Position numbers and translations under genes: made by a program. From a virus (Duplodnaviria > Heunggongvirae > Uroviricota > Caudoviricetes), in IMG/VR virus record IMGVR_UViG_2579778941_000001: a stretch of 64,000 nt of DNA; one strand, 5' to 3'. Of the stretch, positions 2,807-55,950 are shown piece after piece; the first letter of the stretch is position 1; each line of letters starts with the position of its first letter. The notes beneath the pieces were generated by a model that saw only the letters and a program-made list of their open reading frames with translations, did not search any database and was not told where the DNA came from.

Positions 2807-4821
2807 AAGAGCTGTGCTATGGATCTGTTTGCAGTGGAATTGAAGCCGCGAGTATTGCCTGGGAACCGTTGGGTATGCGTCCGGCGTGGTTTGCTGAAAT
2901 CGAGCCTTTTCCATCTGCCGTTCTTGCGCACCGCTGGCCCCATGTCGCCAACCTTGGCGATATGACAAAACTTGCCAAAAAAGTCCTGGCTGGGGAAATC
3001 GAATCCCCTGATGTGCTCGTCGGGGGTACGCCTTGTCAGGCATTCAGTATCGCGGGCTTACGTGGTGGGCTTGATGATGAACGCGGCGCGCTAACTTTGA
3101 AGTATGTGGAGCTTGCAAATGCAATTGACGACAAACGGTCTGAGTCCTTCCTCAAACCGACAGTTATCGTCTGGGAAAATGTCCCAGGAGTCCTGTCATC
3201 GGCAGATAACGCCTTCGGATGTTTCCTTGCCGGATTGGCTGGAGAAGATGCGCCATTTGAACCAGGTGATCGACCTGAATCAGGAAAAAGTAACGCGTTC
3301 TGGCGGTGGGATGGCAAAACCGGTTGCCATGCTCCAAAGTGGCCGCAGTGTGGTTGTATTTATGGACCGCAGCGAAAGGTGGCCTGGAGAATCCTTGATG
3401 CCCAATACTTCGGAGTGGCACAACGACGCCGACGCGTGTTTGTTGTCGCAAGTGCTCGAACAGACCTCGATCCCGCAACGGTACTTTTTGAGTTCGAAGG
3501 CGTGCGCCGGAATATTGCGCCGAGCAGAGGCGAGGGGAAGGAAACTACCAGATATACTTCAAACATCGCTATCAGATCTTGCGATGATACAAACATAGTT
3601 GCCATGGCACATGGGCAAGGAGGGGCTGAGATAAAAACCGATAATTCGGCACCAACTTTGACATGTAACCATGAAGCACCAATTGTATTGCTCGTCGACG
3701 GTAGAATGCGCCGTCTTATCCCTGTCGAATGTGAAAGGCTGCAAGGTTTTCCTGATGGACATACATTGATCCCTACGGAAAAGCGTAAAAAAGTTTCTTC
3801 AGATGAACTGGCATACCTTCGCAAAAACTATCCTGATTTGAGCGAAGAAGAGGCCGCGATGCTTGCAGCTGACGGACCGCGTTACAAAGCGATCGGCAAT
3901 AGTATGGCGATACCAGTAATGCGCTGGATTGGCGATCGGATTGCCAAGGCTGCATGTCGGCAGAAGGAAGGGAGTGAAACAAAAGAGCGAAAAGTTAAAC
4001 CAGCGGCAGAATTCGAACGGTCCATATTCAAATGGGCTGGTGGAAAATTTGGTGTTCTGGAACAAATCTTTCGCTATTTGCCAGAAGGGAAGCGCCTGAT
4101 TGAGCCTTTCGTTGGTGGCGGAGCTGTCTTCATGAATGCCGGATACCAGGAAAATCTGCTAAATGATGTGAATGCTGACCTGATTAACTTTTACAAGACT
4201 CTGCAACGCGAGGCGCATTCACTTATCACTCTGGCACATCGTTTCTTCCAGGACTACAACACGCAGGAAGGATACCTGGCAGTACGGAATGCGTTTAACA
4301 AACAAGTCTATGATGATTTACATCGCGCAGCGGCGTTTTTGTTCCTGAACCGACATTGTTTTAACGGATTGACGCGTTACAACCAAGCCGGTGAGTTCAA
4401 TGTCGGTTATGGGAAGTATAAAACTCCGTATTTCCCATTGCAGGAGATGGAAGCCTTCCTTGGTGCGGAAGGGCGTTCTGAGTTTGTATGTGGTGATTTT
4501 GCTGCGGTGATTGAAGCTGCCGGAGAAGGAGATGTCATCTTTTGCGATCCGCCGTATGAACCGCTCCCAAATACAGAGGGATTCACGAACTATTCCGGTC
4601 ATGACTTTAAGTTTGAAGAGCAAAAACGCCTGGCGTCTCTGTTGACGGATGCTCATCGCCGAGGTGCAAAGGTTCTCATTACTAACAGTGGCGCGCCAAA
4701 CATCAGAGAACTTTATCAGGACAGTGGCTTCAGAGTGGAACCTCTTTTTGCCAGACGTTCTGTGTCTTGTAAGGGGGACACTCGAGGTGTTGCTCATGAC
4801 GTTATAGCAATATTGCTCTAA
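2803..4821 (+). CDS. dmt: Bifunctional DNA methyltransferase: N-terminal C5-cytosine MTase domain fused to C-terminal Dam-like N6-adenine MTase domain
   Basis: C5 motifs [12 protein letters not shown] (PCQ), ENVPG (ENV), QRRRRVF; C-terminal [10 protein letters not shown]...[10 protein letters not shown]...FCDPPYEP is a clear Dam/D12-class signature. GTG start overlapping hrdC stop. Confidence 0.9.
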
Positions 4822-4828
4822 TAAATTT
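4812..4828 (+). promoter_or_regulatory. C1 operator (ATTGCTCTAATAAATTT, exact consensus) overlapping dmt stop codon
   Basis: Exact 17-bp match to the consensus. Confidence 0.65.
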
Positions 4829-31927: not shown

Positions 31928-33121
31928 GTGACCTGGGACGATCACAAGAAGAATTTTGCTCGCCTGGCGCGAGATGGTGGTTACACCATCGCACAGTATG
32001 CCGCCGAGTTTAATCTTAACCCTAATACCGCACGTCGTTATCTCCGTGCCTTCAAAGAAGACACCAGGACAGCGGACAGCCGCAAGCCAAATAAGCCAGT
32101 CAGGAAGCCTCTAAAAAGCATGATCATTGATCACGCTAATGATCAACGTGCATGTGATCACATTGTGGCTGAAATGGCTGAAAAACAAAGAGTTAATGCT
32201 GTTGTCAGTGCCGCAGTCGAGAACGCTAAGCGCCAAAATAAGCGCATAAATGATCGTTCTGATGATCATGACGTGATCACCCGCGCCCACCGTACCTTAC
32301 GTGATCGCCTGGAACGCGACACCCTGGATGATGATGGTGAACGCTTTGAATTCGAAGCTGGCGATTACCTGATAGATAACGTTGAAGCGCGGAAGGCCGC
32401 GCGCGCTATGTTGCGTCGGTCCGGGGCCGATGTTCTGGAAACCACTCTTCTGGAAAAGTCTCTTTCTCATCTCCTTATGCTGGAGAACGCCAGGGATACG
32501 TGTATTCGCCTGGTGCAGGAAATGCGCGATCAGCAAAAAGACGATGATGAAGGTACTCCGCCTGAATACCGTATCGCGAGCATGCTAAACAGCTGTTCCG
32601 CGCAGATAAGCAGCCTGATCAACACCATTTACAGCATCCGGAATAACTATCGAAAAGAAAGCCGGGAGGCGGAAAAGCACGCTTTATCTATGGGGCAAGC
32701 TGGCATTGTTAAGCTGGCATACGAACGAAAGCGTGAAAATAACTGGTCAGTGCTGGAAGCGGCTGAATTCATCGAGGCGCATGGAGGAAAAGTGCCTCCC
32801 CTGATGCTGGAGCAAATCAAAGCCGATCTGCGTGCTCCTAAGACCAATACCGATGATGAGGAAAACCAAACAGCATCTGGCGCTCCATCACTTGAAGATC
32901 TGGATAAAATCGCGCGAGAACGGGCCGCCAGCCGCCGCGCTGATGCCGCATTGTGGATTGAGCATCGTAGAGAAGAAATTGCCGATATCGTCGATACAGG
33001 TGGTTATGGTGATGTCGATGCGGAAGGCATATCAAACGAAGCATGGCTTGAACAGGATCTGGACGAAGACGAGGAGGAAGACGAAGAAGTTACCCGCAAA
33101 CTGTACGGGGATGATGATTAA
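31928..33121 (+). CDS. pacA: Terminase small subunit / pac-recognition protein
   Basis: 397 aa; contains the pac hexamer cluster inside its 5' part; acidic C-terminus; GTG start. Confidence 0.8.
32121..32279. other. pac packaging site: 4 + 3 TGATCA/G hexamers (32121-32160 and 32251-32279) flanking the cleavage region
   Basis: TGATCATTGATCACGCTAATGATCAACGTGCATGTGATCA ... TGATCGTTCTGATGATCATGACGTGATCA; each hexamer carries a Dam GATC site. Confidence 0.8.
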
Positions 33122-34605
33122 TGGCCAGAAGTTGCGTAACGGACCCACGTTGGCGCGAGCTGGTGGCGCTATATCGTTATGACTGGATTGCGGCCGCTGA
33201 TGTGTTGTTTGGGAAGACACCAACCTGGCAGCAGGATGAGATCATTGAGTCCACGCAGCAGGACGGCAGTTGGACAAGTGTGACCTCCGGCCATGGTACT
33301 GGTAAATCGGATATGACGAGTATCATTGCAATACTCTTCATCATGTTTTTCCCCGGCGCTCGCGTCATTCTGGTCGCTAACAAAAGACAGCAAGTCCTTG
33401 ATGGTATTTTCAAATACATAAAGAGCAATTGGGCTACTGCTGTTAGCAGATTCCCGTGGTTGTCGAAGTATTTCATTCTTACAGAAACGTCTTTTTTTGA
33501 GGTGACTGGCAAGGGTGTTTGGACAATATTGATAAAGTCCTGTCGCCCCGGGAATGAGGAGGCGTTGGCTGGTGAACACGCCGATCATCTCTTGTATATC
33601 ATCGACGAAGCGTCGGGTGTGAGTGATAAAGCATTCAGTGTGATAACAGGTGCGCTGACCGGTAAGGATAACCGTATTCTGCTTCTTTCCCAGCCTACGC
33701 GACCTTCAGGCTATTTCTACGATTCACACCACAGACTAGCTATTCGCCCGGGAAATCCTGATGGATTGTTTACTGCGATAATACTGAATAGTGAAGAATC
33801 TCCGCTTGTAGATGCAAAATTTATACGAGCAAAACTTGCGGAGTATGGCGGTCGTGATAACCCCATGTACATGATCAAAGTACGTGGTGAATTTCCCAAA
33901 TCTCAAGATGGCTTTCTTCTTGGTCGTGATGAGGTTGAGCGGGCGACGCGGCGAAAGGTCAAGATTGCCAAAGGATGGGGCTGGGTTGCATGTGTTGACG
34001 TTGCTGGTGGCACAGGACGAGATAAGTCCGTTATTAATATCATGATGGTGTCCGGCCAGCGAAATAAACGCCGTGTAATCAACTATCGTATGCTGGAATA
34101 CACAGACGTTACAGAAACGCAGTTAGCCGCCAAGATTTTCGCAGAATGTAACCCAGAACGGTTCCCGAACATAACCATAGCTATTGATGGCGATGGCTTG
34201 GGGAAATCGACGGCTGATCTAATGTACGAACGCTATGGCATTACCGTCCAGCGTATCCGCTGGGGTAAAAAGATGCACAGCCGTGAAGATAAAAGCCTTT
34301 ATTTCGATATGCGCGCTTTCGCGAATATTCAGGCGGCAGAAGCTGTAAAATCAGGGCGTATGAGGCTTGATAAGGGGGCTGCGACTATAGAGGAAGCATC
34401 AAAGATACCGGTAGGGATAAATTCCGCAGGTCAATGGAAGGTGATGTCAAAGGAAGATATGAAGAAAAAACTCAACCTGCACTCACCGGACCATTGGGAT
34501 ACATATTGTTTCGCTATGTTGGCGAACTATGTTCCCCAGGATGAAGTGCTTAGCGTCGAAGACGAAGCGCAGGTTGATGAAGCTCTGGCATGGCTTAATG
34601 AATAA
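33121..34605 (+). CDS. pacB: Terminase large subunit (ATPase + nuclease)
   Basis: Walker [10 protein letters not shown], Walker [12 protein letters not shown], terminase fold. Confidence 0.85.
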
Positions 34606-35801: not shown

Positions 35802-36040
35802 AATTATGCCTCACTGTATTGACAACACAGAGCCTGAAGCTCTGACCTACTGTTTCACCCATGATCCATGCTGGGGTAATCTAACAACATTGCGCTGTGT
35901 GTAAGATGAGCAATGCATAGCTGTAATGCCGTTGTATAAGGTTTCCCTGTTTGCTCATTTCCTTCTGAGCCGCTCTACAACGCTGAAGACACATTAAATA
36001 GTGAATCCAAAGTCGTATTACGAAACGGCGGCAAAACTAT

Positions 36041-36139
36041 AATTTATTAGAGCAATTGTCAAACAACAATGAAAAACAATCCAGTTTTTGGCTGGTGGAG
36101 TGGGATTTTTCTCTCAAAATTTATTGCTCTAATAATTCT
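36041..36139. promoter_or_regulatory. Pair of C1 operators (36041-36056 inverted; 36123-36139 direct) upstream of coi-c1 (Op99-like region)
   Basis: AATTTATTAGAGCAAT and ATTGCTCTAATAATTCT. Confidence 0.6.
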
Positions 36140-38159: not shown

Positions 38160-38188
38160 ATTGCTCTAATTGATTGCTATAATTAAGC
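38160..38188 (+). promoter_or_regulatory. Two overlapping C1 operators upstream of ref (Op2-like)
   Basis: ATTGCTCTAATTGATTGCTATAATTAAGCC. Confidence 0.6.
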
Positions 38189-38275: not shown

Positions 38276-38836
38276 ATGAAAACAATCGAACAAAAACTTG
38301 AACAGCGCCGCGAGTGGCAGAAGGCAGCCAGAGAACGAGCGATCGCTCGGCAACGGGAAAAGTTGGCTGACCCCGCCTGGCGAGAATCGCAATATCAGAA
38401 AATGCGGGATTCTATCGACCGCCGTATCGCTAAACAGAAAGAGCGCCCACCAGCCAGCAAAACGCGGAAAAGTGCGGTAAAAATAAAATCTCGTGGCTTG
38501 AAGGGACGAACACCGACGGCGGAGGAACGGCGCATAGCCAATGCTCTTGGCGCTCTCCCCTGCATTGCCTGCTATATGCATGGAGTAATATCTGAAGAGG
38601 TGTCTCTGCACCATATCTCCGGTCGTACCGCGCCGGGTTGTCACAAAAAGCAGTTGCCACTTTGTAGATGGCACCACCAGCATGCAGCACCGGCTGAAGT
38701 AAGAGAAAAATACCCCTGGCTGGTCCCTGTTCATGCCGATGGTGTGGTTGGAGGCAAGAAAGAATTCACCTTGCTGAACAAGTCAGAGATGGAGTTGCTG
38801 GCTGACGCCTATGAGATGGCAAACATCATGCACTAA
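38276..38836 (+). CDS. ref: Ref recombination-enhancement HNH endonuclease
   Basis: 186 aa; basic N-terminus; HNH-like core CYMHGVISEEVSLHHISGRTAPGCHKKQLPLCRWHHQ. Confidence 0.8.
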   Translation: MKTIEQKLEQRREWQKAARERAIARQREKLADPAWRESQYQKMRDSIDRRIAKQKERPPASKTRKSAVKIKSRGLKGRTPTAEERRIANALGALPCIACYMHGVISEEVSLHHISGRTAPGCHKKQLPLCRWHHQHAAPAEVREKYPWLVPVHADGVVGGKKEFTLLNKSEMELLADAYEMANIMH

Positions 38837-38997: not shown

Positions 38998-39666
38998 GTG
39001 GCTTTTCTTTTTTGTAGGGGCGCTATGGATAAGAAAATATGCGTTGTTTCGATGAGCGTCGGTAAACCGGCGTCAATGACTGCTGCATGGATCAACAACG
39101 AGCTGATAATGGCTGAGCGGACCAGCTACCCTGAACGCCGCCGCGATATGGAACTCCAGCTGCTGCGCGAATTGCGAGAAAAAGAGGAAAAGGGTTTTAT
39201 CGTGCTGGTGGAAGAGGAAAACAGCTTTATTACTGGTCGAGTTGGCCAGCGTGTAAGGTTGCGCGATCCCTTCATGAACGGCAGGCCGGTACTAATTGAG
39301 GCCATGCAGATTTATAAGGAGCTGGAACGCCAGAAAGCAATCAAGTTACCGCGCAAGGAATCCGGCAAATACATCCTCCACCAAAGCATCTTCGATTCCG
39401 AACACGATAAAAAAGGCGATGAATTTTTCAACATCAACTGGAGCGAAATAACGACAGAGCATGTTCTGACGTTACTCTGTTGCTTTGCGACGGAATACAA
39501 CAACGTTGCCAGCGCAGACTACATCAGGGCAATGGCTGGAGAAGTTGAGGCACGCCAGGAACCATCGTTACTAAGCCCTCTGATTAACATAATTCGCGGA
39601 ACCCAAACGCTGGCACAAAAACAGGTGCCTAAGGGAGTATTAACAGGAAAAGGAAATTATCTATAA
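38998..39666 (+). CDS. Hypothetical protein (mat-like position; start may be ATG 39025)
   Basis: 222-aa ORF of core-like base composition between ref and the AT-rich island. Confidence 0.4.
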   Translation: MAFLFCRGAMDKKICVVSMSVGKPASMTAAWINNELIMAERTSYPERRRDMELQLLRELREKEEKGFIVLVEEENSFITGRVGQRVRLRDPFMNGRPVLIEAMQIYKELERQKAIKLPRKESGKYILHQSIFDSEHDKKGDEFFNINWSEITTEHVLTLLCCFATEYNNVASADYIRAMAGEVEARQEPSLLSPLINIIRGTQTLAQKQVPKGVLTGKGNYL

Positions 39667-39722: not shown

Positions 39723-41027
39723 ATGAGCGAGTATATAGAAATTGCCTATGCAGCAGCTACACATAGGCTGTGCTTTCTTACAGGCACTGGATTTTCAAAG
39801 GCTGTTTCTGATGATAAAGCCCCAAGTTGGCAATCTTTATTGGAGCAACTGTGCGGTTTATTGAAGGATGGTGACTCACTCAAAGAGGAATTATTTCCTG
39901 ATGGAAAAGCAAAAGACCTTAGCCTTGAAGAGGCTGCTCAGGTTATTGCACTAAAATTTATACTTTCGGGGAAAAATATTTACCAGGAGATTGAGAAAAT
40001 CATAGCCTCAATCGAACTTGATCCATCAATTGAATATATTCAAGACTTTTTCAAAGAAAACACATTTAAAGTAATTACGACAAATTATGACAAGTTAGCA
40101 GAAAAACTGGCTGGAGAGAATCGAACGTGTACAATCACCCCCGGCCTGCCAATTCCAAAATATAATTGTGAGGTTAAAGTCTACCATGTTCACGGCTCTA
40201 TAGACTCCCCATCAGATATGGTTGTTACTAGCGAGGATTATTTCAGATTTATAAATGGTAATTCTTACTTTTCAAATAAACTAAGCACAGTTCTACATGA
40301 AAACACTATTGTTATTCTTGGCTATTCTCTAAGTGACGCGAACCTCAAGGCGATTATAAATGAATATAAGGTATTTTCACGGGACAACGTAATGTCCTCC
40401 AATATTTTCCTTATTTCCCGAGGAAAACTATTGCAACCTATTAAAGATTACTATTTTTCCTGCTTTGGGATTAGGGTTATAGATAAAACAGAGGTGTCTG
40501 ATTTCTTTAGAAAACTTAACAAGAAAATTCCAGAAGCAAAAAAAATAAAAGACAAATTGAGGCACTCAATCAAATCGGTAATAAAAAACGGAAGAGAGTA
40601 TAAAATAGAGTTCTTGAAGTTAGAGGATTCTTTTTATCATATCATTTCCTCCATTTCATCATCTGGATATAGCTGGAATGATGAAAAGGTATTAAATGTT
40701 TTTTGTGATATAATAGATAAAAAAATAGATCTTACTAAAGAGTCTGGCGCATGGGAGCAGTATGAACACCTGGCAAAATGGCTTATTTATTTCGGTAGTT
40801 TATTTGAAGTAAAAGGAACCAACTTTGAGAAAAAATACATACATGCGGTTGAACACTCAATGACTTATATGAATAAACCTTACGAAACAGGCTACTCATG
40901 GCGAGCATATCTAGCCTGGAAAACAAAATGGCCTTCACTGACAGCATCTAACCGCTCTCTTATTAAGAGTAAGATGGAAGAAATCCCGCTACAACAGATT
41001 CACGATATTATATCTAAGTTTATATAG
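39723..41027 (+). CDS. SIR2-like NAD-utilising domain protein (defence-type SIR2 motifs) with about 200-aa uncharacterised helical C-terminal domain; candidate single-gene antiphage effector
   Basis: Motifs FLTGTGFS (Rossmann GxG), ITTNYD (catalytic Asn about residue 121), VYHVHGS (catalytic His about 157), ILGYSLSD; GGAG RBS 6 nt upstream; gene is strikingly AT-rich versus flanks (by eye). Confidence 0.85.
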   Translation: MSEYIEIAYAAATHRLCFLTGTGFSKAVSDDKAPSWQSLLEQLCGLLKDGDSLKEELFPDGKAKDLSLEEAAQVIALKFILSGKNIYQEIEKIIASIELDPSIEYIQDFFKENTFKVITTNYDKLAEKLAGENRTCTITPGLPIPKYNCEVKVYHVHGSIDSPSDMVVTSEDYFRFINGNSYFSNKLSTVLHENTIVILGYSLSDANLKAIINEYKVFSRDNVMSSNIFLISRGKLLQPIKDYYFSCFGIRVIDKTEVSDFFRKLNKKIPEAKKIKDKLRHSIKSVIKNGREYKIEFLKLEDSFYHIISSISSSGYSWNDEKVLNVFCDIIDKKIDLTKESGAWEQYEHLAKWLIYFGSLFEVKGTNFEKKYIHAVEHSMTYMNKPYETGYSWRAYLAWKTKWPSLTASNRSLIKSKMEEIPLQQIHDIISKFI

Positions 41028-52301: not shown

Positions 52302-52351
52302 TCACTTGTTAGCTACGTTTCAAAGATATACATTATTGCTCTAATTATTTT
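52302..52351. promoter_or_regulatory. Divergent control region: late-promoter-like AACAAGTGA (minus, 52302-52310) for lyz and C1 operator ATTGCTCTAATTATTTT (52335-52351) before ssb
   Basis: Both motifs seen directly. Confidence 0.5.
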
Positions 52352-52370: not shown

Positions 52371-52859
52371 GTGGCACAACGCGGTGTAAACAAAGTCATC
52401 CTGATTGGTACCCTGGGGCAAGACCCGGAGATCAGGTATATACCAAATGGCGGCGCGGTCGGAAGACTCAGCATCGCAACGAATGAATCATGGCGCGACA
52501 AGCAAACGGGCCAACAGAAAGAGCAAACAGAATGGCATAAAGTCGTTTTGTTCGGAAAACTTGCTGAAATTGCGAGTGAGTATTTAAGAAAAGGTTCTCA
52601 GGTCTACATCGAAGGGAAACTTAAAACCCGTAAGTGGACAGATGACGCCGGTGTAGAACGTTACACGACGGAAATTATCGTCAGCCAGGGCGGCACCATG
52701 CAAATGATCGGCGCTCGCCGTGACGATTCACAGTCCTCAAATGGCTGGGGGCAATCAAACCAACCTCAAAACCACCAGCAATACAGTGGTGGCGGTAAAC
52801 CTCAGAGCAACGCCAATAACGAACCTCCAATGGACTTTGACGACGATATTCCGTTTTGA
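52371..52859 (+). CDS. ssb: Single-stranded DNA-binding protein
   Basis: Near-colinear with E. coli SSB: [20 protein letters not shown]...[13 protein letters not shown]...C-terminal DDDIPF tail. Confidence 0.92.
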
Positions 52860-53056
52860 ATGTGTAAAAAACGACTGAAAGAAAAGCGGTGGTCCAGACG
52901 CCGACAAAAGCACGAACTCGCAAACAAACGCCAAAGTTGGCAATGGCACGCGCTTTTCACGAAAAGAACACCCCGAGATATTGCGTTCGCTGGTGGGAAA
53001 ACATTCCTGACCCACCTGAAGGCGCAATACATCAGGTTTTAAGCAGAGGAAAGACT

Positions 53057-53734
53057 ATGAATAACATGACAACGAAAGAGCTTTTGACGGCACTTCCAAA
53101 ATACAAAAGCCATAAAACAGTTCGCGCCTCAAAAATCAAAGATATCGAAATTATCGCCCTAATGGATGTGGTCCTTTTTTGCAACATCGAAGTCGTTGAG
53201 CCAGAAGGGGTAAAAGTCCATGTTGATAAAATATTTTTGCAAAAACACCGACCAGAAATTGGCGGATATCTGGTCGCTTATGAGGACGGATCTCTGTCCT
53301 ATTCACCAGAAAAAACATTTGAAGAAGGCTTTAGTCGGACTAACGACTTCTTCGAAAATGGGGTATCGCTCAGCATTGAAGGTCACAATGGGGTGACATT
53401 CATTACAGCCAGGGACGTAACTATTTCTGCTGGCGGTATCGCTACTCTACAAGAAGAAATCGACCTTGAAGCAGCCGACTTTTCTGACGCGCTGATGTGG
53501 CTGAAGGATGGCAAGAAAGTTGCCCGACGCGGGTGGAACGGCGAAAACCAATTCTGCTGGCTGGTTCCTGAAGGACAGTACCCGGCACGAATGGAAGCCA
53601 TTAAGGGATATTTCCCCGGCGACCTCGTTCCGTATGGTGCTTATTTCGCCTTAAAAAATGCACAAGGTGTAGTTGTTCCGTGGGTGCCTTCTGTAGGCGA
53701 CTTACTGGCATGTGACTGGTTTGTAGTGGAGTGA
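53057..53734 (+). CDS. Two-domain protein; C-terminal about 85 aa resembles DUF2829 (Tad2-like) small phage proteins
   Basis: GAGGAAAG RBS before ATG 53057; C-terminus FSDALMWLKDGKKVARRGWNGENQFCWL...VGDLLACDWFVVE fits my recollection of the DUF2829 pattern (F-x-EAL...K-x-GKK-V-x-R-x-GWNG ... DW-x-VxE). Confidence 0.45.
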   Translation: MNNMTTKELLTALPKYKSHKTVRASKIKDIEIIALMDVVLFCNIEVVEPEGVKVHVDKIFLQKHRPEIGGYLVAYEDGSLSYSPEKTFEEGFSRTNDFFENGVSLSIEGHNGVTFITARDVTISAGGIATLQEEIDLEAADFSDALMWLKDGKKVARRGWNGENQFCWLVPEGQYPARMEAIKGYFPGDLVPYGAYFALKNAQGVVVPWVPSVGDLLACDWFVVE

Positions 53735-53740
53735 TTTAAC

Positions 53741-54523
53741 GTGGAAAATACTAAAGCAATTCAATACCGCCTGCGTAATGGTCAGAGTGTCGAAGTGACC
53801 ATCAATAATGATGGTGTGCCTGGCGAAAAGGTTTCGATCTCTGATCTGGCTATCGAAAAAACCATCATGTGCCACCTTGGCTTTACTGAAGAAGTGAGCA
53901 AAAAGCATGGTGTAGCAATCTGGAGCGCAATGGATACTGGTATGCACAGATTCATTACTGCTCGTACCCCAGGGATGACCATGATGGACCTCATGCAGAT
54001 TGCGCCGCTGTTTGAATGTGAGCCTTTAGATGTATTCAGCAATCCAGCTATCTGCCAGCAGCTATATGGTGAGATGAAACTCGCGGTTACCCCCATTGTG
54101 CTGCATGAAGGATCGCTTGCTGGCGTGTGGAAAGTGGAGCGTATTTCAAGCTACATGCCTTTCCATGTCAACGGCGTAATCACTGGTGAAAATCAACCTG
54201 TTTCCGTTATAAAGTCAGACCTCAAGCGCGCAATTCTTGAAGCAAGTTGTCGAGTTGTCGGCCTGGGCAAACAGTCTTATGTTTCCTTCCCGGCTGGCCC
54301 TGAAGGCCCGGCAGAAATTCTGATTATGGATGCCGATCTGCTATGGCAAATACAGTTTCTGATTGGCAAAAGCATCATCCGCGCTGAAGAACTCGATCAG
54401 TACATTACCTGCACGATGACGGATGAAGTCAAAAGTGTGGCTATAGCCAATGCCCGGAACCTATGTCGTGCTGCATTAACAGAACTGCAAGAAAACACCA
54501 CGGAAGAGGTGGAAAGTGATTAA
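53741..54523 (+). CDS. Hypothetical protein
   Basis: 260-aa ORF (GTG start) between the DUF2829-like gene and the terminase paralogue. Confidence 0.4.
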   Translation: MENTKAIQYRLRNGQSVEVTINNDGVPGEKVSISDLAIEKTIMCHLGFTEEVSKKHGVAIWSAMDTGMHRFITARTPGMTMMDLMQIAPLFECEPLDVFSNPAICQQLYGEMKLAVTPIVLHEGSLAGVWKVERISSYMPFHVNGVITGENQPVSVIKSDLKRAILEASCRVVGLGKQSYVSFPAGPEGPAEILIMDADLLWQIQFLIGKSIIRAEELDQYITCTMTDEVKSVAIANARNLCRAALTELQENTTEEVESD

Positions 54524-55610
54524 TCGTAAACAGAATGAATCTGCCTGGTTAGCACTGATAGAACGGTATAAAGACAATTGGGAACTGGCAGCAAAAGAGT
54601 TGCTTGATATTGAGTTAACACCTCATCAAGCAAAAATTATTAACGCGATAAAGAACACCGGAGCCAAAGTCACTGCCACCACACCACATGGTATTGGGGA
54701 AACCTCTATTGTGGCAGTGATTAGCATCCTGCAAACAATACTGTATTCGTGTTCCCGTACAGTGGTTGTTTCTCCTGCGATTAACGATAGTCGAAAAACA
54801 ATAATTGACTATATGTTCCGTTATTGGGAGCGAGTTACCCAAAAACACCCTTTTCTTGGCAATTATTTCAGAATACACCCTGACAAAGGGTTGGTGCATA
54901 TCAGTGAAACATGGGGATGCGTCTATATAACCTATTGTCTGAATAACGAAGAGTCTCTGGCTGGTTTTACTGGACCGCACGATCTTTTCATCGTTATTAA
55001 CTCGGCGGAAATCAGCGATCGCGCTCATGCAGTGATAACTGGCAATTTAACCAATTATGACTCGCGCCTGCTGTTGCTGTCGAAACCATCGGAACGCGAG
55101 AAAGGGTACTTTTATGATTCGCATCACCGGTTGGCCCATAGTAAAAACAATCCTGCTGGTTTTTTCACGGCGATAACTCTAAACACAGAGGATTCACCTC
55201 TCGTTTCTGAAGCATATCTTGAATTCAAAGCCAAAGAGTTTGGTGGGCGCAATAGCGATGAATATCGCCGATTGATCTTGGGGAAATTCCCCGGGATTCG
55301 GGAGTTGATGGAAAAGTCATCTGTTCCCCGTAATATGCACTTCACAATGACTGACGGTAGTAAATGGGTAGTGCCTACGATCGTGATCGCCAAACACCAT
55401 GCGAAACATCACGCTCAAAAACACAACTCCAGCACATTAGACTGGCTGAAGGCCTATACAATACCGTTATTCTCGGCAAACCATAACGCTATAACTGAAT
55501 GGGCTAAACAAATCCCCTGGCAGGATGTGGCTGAAGAGGCATTTGTCGAAAAACCACCAAGAGATTTGCACGAGCACTGTTGGCTGACATCAGAAAAAAG
55601 CTTCTCGTGA
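54516..55610 (+). CDS. Terminase-large-subunit (PacB) ATPase-domain paralogue with degenerate Walker A/B motifs and no nuclease domain
   Basis: Colinear similarity to PacB of this window ([12 protein letters not shown] vs [12 protein letters not shown]; LLLLSKPSERE vs [11 protein letters not shown]) but Walker A is PHGIGETS (no Lys) and Walker B is LFIVINSAEIS. Confidence 0.65.
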   Translation: MINRKQNESAWLALIERYKDNWELAAKELLDIELTPHQAKIINAIKNTGAKVTATTPHGIGETSIVAVISILQTILYSCSRTVVVSPAINDSRKTIIDYMFRYWERVTQKHPFLGNYFRIHPDKGLVHISETWGCVYITYCLNNEESLAGFTGPHDLFIVINSAEISDRAHAVITGNLTNYDSRLLLLSKPSEREKGYFYDSHHRLAHSKNNPAGFFTAITLNTEDSPLVSEAYLEFKAKEFGGRNSDEYRRLILGKFPGIRELMEKSSVPRNMHFTMTDGSKWVVPTIVIAKHHAKHHAQKHNSSTLDWLKAYTIPLFSANHNAITEWAKQIPWQDVAEEAFVEKPPRDLHEHCWLTSEKSFS

Positions 55611-55641: not shown

Positions 55642-55950
55642 TCAATATACGATCTGGTCTACATGATCACCAAAATCATCGTCGTCGTCCTCATCGCCAC
55701 CATCTACTGCTGGCCAATCAACAAACCAGCCAGCGTAAAGATGCAGCGTTCGGAGAACATCACTTGCGGGAGCATCAAGGGTGTTAACGAATCCCATATA
55801 GCTATTGGGATTTGCCCCAGCTATGGCTTCAGCGATCATGTCCTCGGTAATGTCACCGGAGATAATGCTTAAACGCCCGGAAACTTCTTCATTATCATCA
55901 AATTCGATAATGGCATCTCCACCTAATGGCGCTGCGATTTTAATCTGCAT
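55642..55950 (-). CDS. Small acidic protein, last gene of dar operon
   Basis: 102 aa with DGGDEDDDDDFGD tail. Confidence 0.35.
   Translation of the reverse strand: MQIKIAAPLGGDAIIEFDDNEEVSGRLSIISGDITEDMIAEAIAGANPNSYMGFVNTLDAPASDVLRTLHLYAGWFVDWPAVDGGDEDDDDDFGDHVDQIVY

Follow-up and report, generated by a model that had tools for sequence, protein, structure and literature searches.

Large terminases are the proteins sensed most broadly by the NLR-like immunity of bacteria. The sensor EcAvs2 is switched on by the terminase's ATPase domain alone and contacts the ATP that is bound in the active site of this domain, and Upx likewise senses the ATPase core (PMC13601566). Stand-alone terminase-ATPase paralogues have been noticed only recently: EcAvs2 is triggered by one of them, the vs.8 protein of phage T4, which consists of the ATPase part only and has its Walker motifs intact, and terminase-like proteins that are not terminases have been proposed as possible anti-defence factors (PMC13601566), a role that is also suspected by the respective authors for Ksap1 and Ksap2 (PMC11564622, PMC13601566). 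Here, we describe a gene in a 64,000-nucleotide stretch of viral DNA (IMG/VR record IMGVR_UViG_2579778941_000001; hereinafter the window, in its full length) that encodes a 364-residue paralogue of PacB, the large terminase subunit encoded in the same window, with degenerate versions of the motifs that harbor the catalytic residues. The window belongs to a P1-like phage-plasmid (Punavirus); the region that contains the paralogue is 97-99.7% identical to P1-like phages, and a wider stretch, including the complete gene cassette discussed below, is 100% identical to the Escherichia coli plasmid NZ_LR890538.1. What appears to be new is a monophyletic, selected and fast-evolving group of terminase-ATPase paralogues from which all catalytic residues are gone, and a targeted literature search, the partial coverage of which leaves absence unproven, turned up no description of such a family.

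A PacB paralogue with degenerate catalytic motifs

Comparison of the paralogue with the PacB of the window using BLASTP yields a single colinear alignment (residues 11-272 of the paralogue against residues 11-274 of PacB, 269 positions) with 35% identity, 57% positives and an E-value of 6e-52, so that the similarity to the PacB ATPase domain claimed in the initial annotation is neither short nor of low complexity. The loss of the Walker A lysine and of the Walker B acidic pair, which was part of the same claim, holds as well. In the Walker A region, the paralogue has TTPHGIGETS opposite the PacB segment that contains the canonical lysine, which is replaced with Glu62, with Gly59 and Gly61 retained; in the Walker B region, DLFIVINSA is found opposite the LLYIIDEAS region of PacB, with Ile161-Asn162 in place of Asp-Glu (the Walker B strings given originally were offset by one residue, which is immaterial). 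The coupling motif is altered from SQPT in PacB to SKPS in the paralogue, and the glutamine, the threonine and the following arginine, all kept in the live terminases, are not kept in the inactivated clade described below. Among the five hallmarks of the TerL/PacB proteins, the terminase-type ASCE ATPase fold is the one that the paralogue possesses; the other four, namely, G-K-S/T in Walker A, Asp-Glu in Walker B, the coupling motif and the RNase H-like nuclease, are all missing.

The structure prediction that had been named as a check points in the same direction. The AlphaFold2 model built from a multiple alignment of 123 sequences, which was used instead of the single-sequence prediction with its mean confidence score (pLDDT) of 33, has a terminase-type fold and a pLDDT of 88.8 overall and above 90 at residues 1-262. 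Only about 100 residues separate the end of the ATPase domain from the stop codon, and no nuclease domain is detectable in residues 263-364, for which the comparison with PacB-type nuclease domains using hhalign gave a probability of 0.1%; the originally reported lack of the nuclease is thus borne out. The paralogue and PacB have in common the homologous ATPase domain with its fold, the N-terminal helices, the Q motif and the GYFYDSHH lid motif, whereas the Walker A lysine, the Walker B Asp-Glu pair, the threonine and arginine of the coupling motif and the RNase H-like nuclease are present in PacB but not in the paralogue. Taken together, the sequence comparisons and the model support the interpretation of this protein as an apparently catalytically dead homologue of the terminase large subunit that is devoid of the nuclease; from the same motifs, we infer that it does not bind ATP. 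Most likely, we are dealing with a non-catalytic, accessory mimic of the PacB ATPase domain, that is, a pseudo-enzyme derived from an ancient, diverged copy of a PacB-type ATPase domain in which fold, N-terminal helices and lid have all been preserved.

Among the PHROGs, the paralogue belongs over its full length to phrog_5902 (E-value 2e-185) and also matches phrog_2, the terminase large subunit (E-value 2.8e-9). Neither Pfam nor NCBIfam has a family for it or for the other clade members searched, sequence searches of the PDB with the paralogue, the family profile, the profile of the C-terminal domain, IsaA and the IsaA profile gave nothing meaningful, and the BFVD fold search retrieved ordinary terminases only. 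PADLOC gave zero matches for the three cassette proteins, its library being made up of defence-system models only and hence blind to anti-defence proteins. The GenBank labels of the gene are 'hypothetical protein' and the misleading 'terminase large subunit'. The latter label is used in MH422554.1 (L001, 4523-5617) and in MH445380.1, each of which thereby acquires two apparent large terminases.

Family, selection and distribution

When 1.84 billion cluster representatives were searched exhaustively with HMMER, 742 matches were obtained; from the best 150 of these, the 141 proteins with 200 or more amino acids were aligned. Both G-K and D/E-E are kept in 119 of the 141 homologues, most of them about 450-600 amino acids long, and a group of proteins that lack both motifs, the paralogue among them, is short (244-444 amino acids) and, in this alignment, stops just past the 'LGEFP' that terminates the ATPase domain. 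Across the inactivated family, the position of the Walker A lysine is occupied by E, R, H, T, M, I or C and, because all these residues occur there, the variation points to a lost constraint, as far as the alignment goes, and not to a new specific residue. In the inactivated clade, conservation is lost at Walker A, at Walker B together with the catalytic glutamate, at 'GALT', at 'NR' and at the Q, T and R of the coupling motif; the N-terminal helices, the Q motif, the glycines of the P-loop and the strings 'LAG', 'GYFYDSHH' and 'GxFP' are retained, and the helices (W11, L14, Y18, W22, AA, FG) are more strongly conserved in the inactivated clade than in the live terminases.

In a neighbour-joining tree, 11 inactivated representatives, one per cluster at no more than 50% identity, form a single clade beside the PacB-like terminases, with a bootstrap support of 98/100, or 88/100 when the motif columns are removed, although long-branch attraction may be an alternative source of this grouping. 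One other inactivated, ATPase-only protein from the representative library (P0042, 268 amino acids) groups inside a different clade of live terminases, which suggests a possible second, independent origin of the same design. Another protein, P0010 (444 amino acids), belongs to the inactivated clade and carries a different C-terminal extension of about 180 residues. PHROG 5902, which has no functional annotation, also matches the short, Citrobacter-type version described below (E-value 8e-73), and PHROG 20197 and 17928 also rank among the closest known entries. Word-index searches for homologues of the full protein, the family profile and the C-terminal domain gave 3, 9 and 3 proteins, respectively, and the breadth of the family is accordingly taken from the representative library. 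For P0006, P0007, P0009, P0010 and P0014, searches of the viral, genome, metagenome, plasmid and phage collections for the genomic context returned nothing or true terminases only.

For the most diverged pair of close orthologues, which differ by 59 substitutions, the pairwise ratio of nonsynonymous to synonymous rates (dN/dS) is 0.22-0.27; judging from the sequences, the gene is under purifying selection and not decaying. Intact reading frames are also found in other lineages at 53%, 38% and 34% identity. At the same time, by the same kind of comparison the family is evidently fast evolving: in two lineages in which the PacB proteins are 74% identical, the inactivated paralogues are only 38% identical. 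Each inactivated paralogue stands at much the same distance (30-40% identity) from every PacB type and does not track its own PacB.

A tblastn search of PLSDB detected a PacB-type match in 768 plasmids, an intact copy of the paralogue with at least 80% identity in 120, and a copy that covers at least 80% of the query in 162; in other words, roughly a fifth of the plasmids that carry PacB hold the paralogue. The carriers of the copies with at least 80% identity, at least 120 in number, are phage-plasmids of E. coli, Salmonella and their relatives. The gene is missing from P1 itself and from SJ46. The description of the paralogue as conserved in the initial annotation therefore stands in part: purifying selection and the depth of the family agree with it, whereas the patchy, accessory distribution does not.

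Outside the immediate relatives of the window, a second lineage of E. coli phage-plasmids, the PacB of which is 56% identical, carries the same cassette of a Tad2-like gene, isaA and the inactivated paralogue, here 364 amino acids long and 53% identical; the cassette is not beside ssb but follows cre, a PHROG 6669 gene and dut. In the third lineage, represented by a plasmid of Citrobacter freundii and by IMG/VR contigs, a 263-residue, ATPase-only version is inserted exactly between ref, which it overlaps by 4 nucleotides, and mat, with an isaA homologue 2.7 kb upstream. Leclercia plasmids carry a stand-alone version of 237 amino acids. A real PacB-type terminase is encoded alongside the paralogue in all contexts examined (the window, L011/L087, L082/L019, the Citrobacter locus L089 and the Leclercia locus L088).

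Genomic setting and the C-terminal domain

Four features were not part of the initial annotation: a distinct C-terminal domain, the coupling of the gene to isaA, the Tad2-like neighbour and the membership in a wider family. The coordinates are given in the table.

Table. Features of the paralogue gene and of related loci in the window (amino acid residues are numbered along the paralogue)
Feature	Position	Strand	Remarks
C1 repressor operator (Ossb)	52335..52351	+	2 mismatches to the consensus; just upstream of ssb; corresponds to the annotated P1 Ossb/Op21
ssb	52371..52859	+	first gene of the putative operon
DUF2829 / Tad2-like domain protein	52889..53734	+	Pfam PF11195, E-value 2.5e-22; annotated as DUF2829 in plasmids
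isaA	53741..54523	+	260 amino acids, PHROG 2326; constant upstream partner of the paralogue
Putative translational coupling region	54506..54523	+	GAGG Shine-Dalgarno sequence, GTG at 54516, isaA stop codon TAA at 54521-54523
Inactivated terminase paralogue gene	54516..55610	+	GTG start, 364 amino acids, PHROG 5902
Terminase-type ATPase-fold domain	54516..55301	+	residues 1-262, including the N-terminal helices (2-29)
Degenerate Walker A	54681..54707	+	residues 56-64, TPHGIGETS; from alignments; Lys to Glu62, G59 and G61 retained
Degenerate Walker B	54984..55010	+	residues 157-165, LFIVINSAE; from alignments; Asp-Glu to Ile161-Asn162
Degenerate coupling (C) motif	55077..55091	+	LSKPS, PacB LSQPT; from the alignment
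C-terminal domain	55323..55565	+	residues ~270-350; AlphaFold2: beta hairpin and three helices, pLDDT 67-82
hxr	55642..55950	-	convergent; bounds the cassette
pacB	33121..34605	+	494 amino acids; GHGTGKS and IIDEAS intact, nuclease domain present
C1 operator-like site upstream of ref/mat	38160-38176
ref (RecA-dependent nuclease)	38276-38836	+	PF16786
mat (likely)	38998-39666	+

The paralogue gene is located between ssb and the convergent hxr, and the locus between these two genes is the variable hot-spot RD-2 (PMC6906374). The gene is an accessory one, and four layouts of RD-2 are found in P1-like elements: ssb/Tad2-like/isaA/paralogue/hxr in the window, ssb/isaA/paralogue/hxr in L086 and L001, ssb/Tad2-like/isaA/hxr in SJ46, and isaA-IS1-isaB in P1 itself. 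By reading of the sequence, the stop codon of isaA and the start of the paralogue overlap by 8 nucleotides, with the Shine-Dalgarno sequence 6 nucleotides upstream of the GTG, and an overlap of the two genes is likewise annotated in the second lineage (L087).

The window contains 16 17-bp sites that resemble the C1 operator, compared with 0.27 expected (e.g. 4812-4828, 21011-21027 and 36040-36056), and these, to judge by the sequence matches, mark the C1 regulon of the element. No terminator-like or promoter-like sites were found on the plus strand between 52200 and 56000, and the sole match to a crude pattern for the P1 late promoter is LPlyz, on the opposite strand. Because a C1 operator precedes ssb, no internal terminator or promoter was found, and the paralogue is coupled to isaA, we infer that ssb, the Tad2-like gene, isaA and the paralogue form an early, C1-repressed operon, with the paralogue as the last cistron.

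Homologues of isaA are adjacent to or near the paralogue in three lineages. The IsaA protein of the window is 94% identical to residues 60-320 of P1 IsaA, and its homologue in SJ46 is annotated as isaA; it evolves fast (25-48% identity between lineages) and has no detectable homology to any protein of known function. The possibility that it is a PacA-like small terminase subunit was rejected for lack of any similarity, and the notion that P1 IsaB is a fragment of the paralogue gene was rejected as well, the two being unrelated. The annotated, 320-residue P1 IsaA is apparently over-extended, its first 65 residues matching the leader of the Tad2-like open reading frame of the window (P1 region: L085, 1070-2032); this match suggests that P1 may have lost the Tad2-like gene by deletion. 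The Tad2-like protein combines a C-terminal Tad2-like/DUF2829 domain with an extra N-terminal domain (PHROG 872 / 11049), and the true start of its reading frame (281 amino acids, listed from 52889) is probably the ATG at 53054. It is a candidate anti-Thoeris sponge.

The ref and mat genes, between which the paralogue is inserted in the Citrobacter lineage, are located elsewhere in the window. Between mat and darB, the window encodes a 434-residue protein with a SIR2-like domain (39723-41027, plus strand; PF13289, E-value 1.6e-23), in the place where P1 carries res/mod; this is a possible defence gene, or one that targets NAD, in the other hot-spot, RD-1.

The C-terminal domain of the paralogue has no match in Pfam or the PDB, and the idea that it is a remnant of the nuclease was ruled out by the hhalign comparison with the PacB nuclease domains mentioned above. 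The domain is missing from most members of the inactivated family. It is found as a stand-alone protein in P0128 and in gene 35 of Cronobacter phage JK004 (L091, 4001-4297), the latter directly after the gene for the DnaB helicase, and comprises the C-terminus of ORF36 of Xanthomonas phage CP2 (L090, 2774-4309; 511 amino acids), where it (~95 amino acids) is fused to a weakly DUF1351-like region and where the neighbours are genes for DUF2303, Erf, an exonuclease, an endonuclease and SSB. In the 511-position profile of PHROG 17928, the domain aligns to positions 407-489, and from its length and the matching C-terminal position, we take CP2 ORF36 to belong to this PHROG. Because it occurs both on its own and in CP2 ORF36, the domain is therefore regarded as an independent mobile module with a tendency towards replication and recombination modules. 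In vB_EcoM-813R1 (L002, ON470617.2, 4517-5587), the coding sequence of the paralogue is annotated 24 nucleotides shorter and the match to the C-terminal domain ends early, at residue 65; a one-base difference in length in the 2.2-kb alignment with this phage is consistent with a possible frameshift that would alter the C-terminal tail.

Possible roles and comparison with known systems

A paralogue that apparently can neither package nor cut DNA must act by binding. The role that we favor, with a probability of roughly 0.3, is by analogy that of an anti-defence decoy directed against terminase-sensing immunity of the Avs1-3 and Upx types. The paralogue would probably be produced soon after induction or infection, ahead of PacA and PacB, which are expressed late, and, as a non-activating mimic of the ATPase domain, would occupy sensors of these types; the contact of the sensor with bound ATP being missing, the sensor would not be activated and abortive-infection immunity would be blunted. 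That an early-expressed, dead mimic of the virus's own detected protein antagonises NLR-like immunity in this specific manner, with the loss of the ATP site turning a trigger into a blocker, is a rather doubtful part of the proposal, built on the analogy with the known activators. We count in favor of the decoy the probable early expression together with the features of a gene involved in conflicts, namely, the location in the RD-2 hot-spot, the patchy distribution, the fast evolution, the Tad2-like gene in the same operon (with isaA between the two) and the adjoining dar/ddr antirestriction operon. Furthermore, the context of an early operon fits a decoy or a regulator better than an exclusion factor expressed in the lysogen, these being the three roles considered in the initial annotation.

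Several points weigh against the decoy. Binding of a mimic might set the sensor off instead of blocking it, and the interaction with the sensor could just as well have been lost as a consequence of the lost ATP binding. The Tad2-like gene and the paralogue occur independently of each other, SJ46 having the Tad2-like gene and isaA without the paralogue and other plasmids having isaA and the paralogue without the Tad2-like gene. The neighbours are involved in DNA metabolism, with the ssb operon in the window and ref directly before the paralogue in the Citrobacter lineage, and in unrelated phages the C-terminal domain is found beside DnaB or beside Erf, exonuclease and SSB. Besides, no C1-type operator is found in L011 or L082, where the repressors have diverged, so that the inference from C1 is limited to the P1 lineage. 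A modulator of packaging and an accessory factor of replication or recombination are nearly as plausible as the decoy.

The first of these two alternatives, in which PacA, PacB or the portal would be the binding partner and the paralogue, as an inactive subunit or by sequestering a partner, would adjust when or how processively pac cleavage and headful packaging proceed, appears improbable but deserves consideration, given that the closest relatives of the paralogue are PacB-type terminases, with a PacB present in every context examined, and that the N-terminal helices are under stronger conservation than in the live enzymes. In other terminases, the equivalent N-terminal region binds the small subunit. 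What speaks against it is that P1, SJ46 and most of the PacB plasmids package normally without the paralogue, that the paralogue does not track its own PacB, with 33-40% identity to all PacB types, and that its apparently early, C1-controlled operon contrasts with pacA and pacB, which are late genes. Involvement in replication or recombination, perhaps as a scaffold that is associated with DNA or with SSB/RecA, derives from the RecA-like ATPase fold and docks via the C-terminal domain, is a comparably tentative idea; it draws on the ssb operon of the window, on the position of the 263-residue version between ref and mat in the Citrobacter and IMG/VR lineage, and on the neighbours of the C-terminal domain in JK004 and CP2. 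However, most family members lack this domain, no DNA-binding motif was identified in the paralogue, and the evidence from neighbourhoods comes from few loci in elements where, P1 having few early operons, co-location may be incidental.

Use of the paralogue as a weapon against competitors, that is, as a dominant-negative subunit or a trap for the small subunit that keeps superinfecting P1-like phages, or satellites hijacking the terminase, from packaging, is unlikely. Its accessory, fast-evolving and hot-spot-confined character would suit such a role, as would the design itself, a dead subunit without a nuclease being what one would expect of a classic poison of a ring motor; nevertheless, the C1 operator implies that lysogens, in which exclusion would be needed, probably do not express the gene, and its own PacB is no more distant from the paralogue than foreign ones, so that self-poisoning would not be avoided. 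As for a decaying, functionless remnant of a duplicated terminase gene, the loss of all catalytic motifs and of the nuclease domain, as well as the one-base length difference and the shortened coding sequence of vB_EcoM-813R1, in which the C-terminal match breaks off, might be read in this way, but a dN/dS of about 0.25, the maintenance of the frame down to 34% identity, the pLDDT of 88.8 and the existence of a monophyletic family with conserved residues of its own effectively refute this explanation. With this family, it can be asked directly whether phages counter the sensors of the host with inactive versions of the very protein that is detected, and whether packaging or replication is under the control of pseudo-terminases. 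If the anti-sensor decoy is indeed its function, the paralogue would be a viral mimic of the virus's own detected protein.

Compared with PacB, the gene of which is essential and belongs to a late operon, the paralogue gene is accessory and probably belongs to an early operon. The essentiality of PacB is documented in P1 (PMC10695390). The nearest described analogue of the paralogue is T4 vs.8, a paralogue of gp17 that, like the protein described here, is a stand-alone ATPase domain without the nuclease (PMC13601566). By the description in that work, vs.8 keeps both Walker A and Walker B and activates EcAvs2, whereas neither motif survives in the P1-like family; moreover, this family is of the PacB type and not of the T4 type, and the subfamily represented in the window has the extra C-terminal domain. 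Ksap1 and Ksap2, from Dhillonvirus and Stephanstirmvirinae, are, like the paralogue, accessory phage proteins of restricted lineages with a resemblance to the ATPase core of terminases, and they activate Avs2 (PMC11564622, PMC13601566). As described, however, they are similar to terminases in secondary structure only, whereas the paralogue of the P1-like phage-plasmids is a clear sequence homologue.

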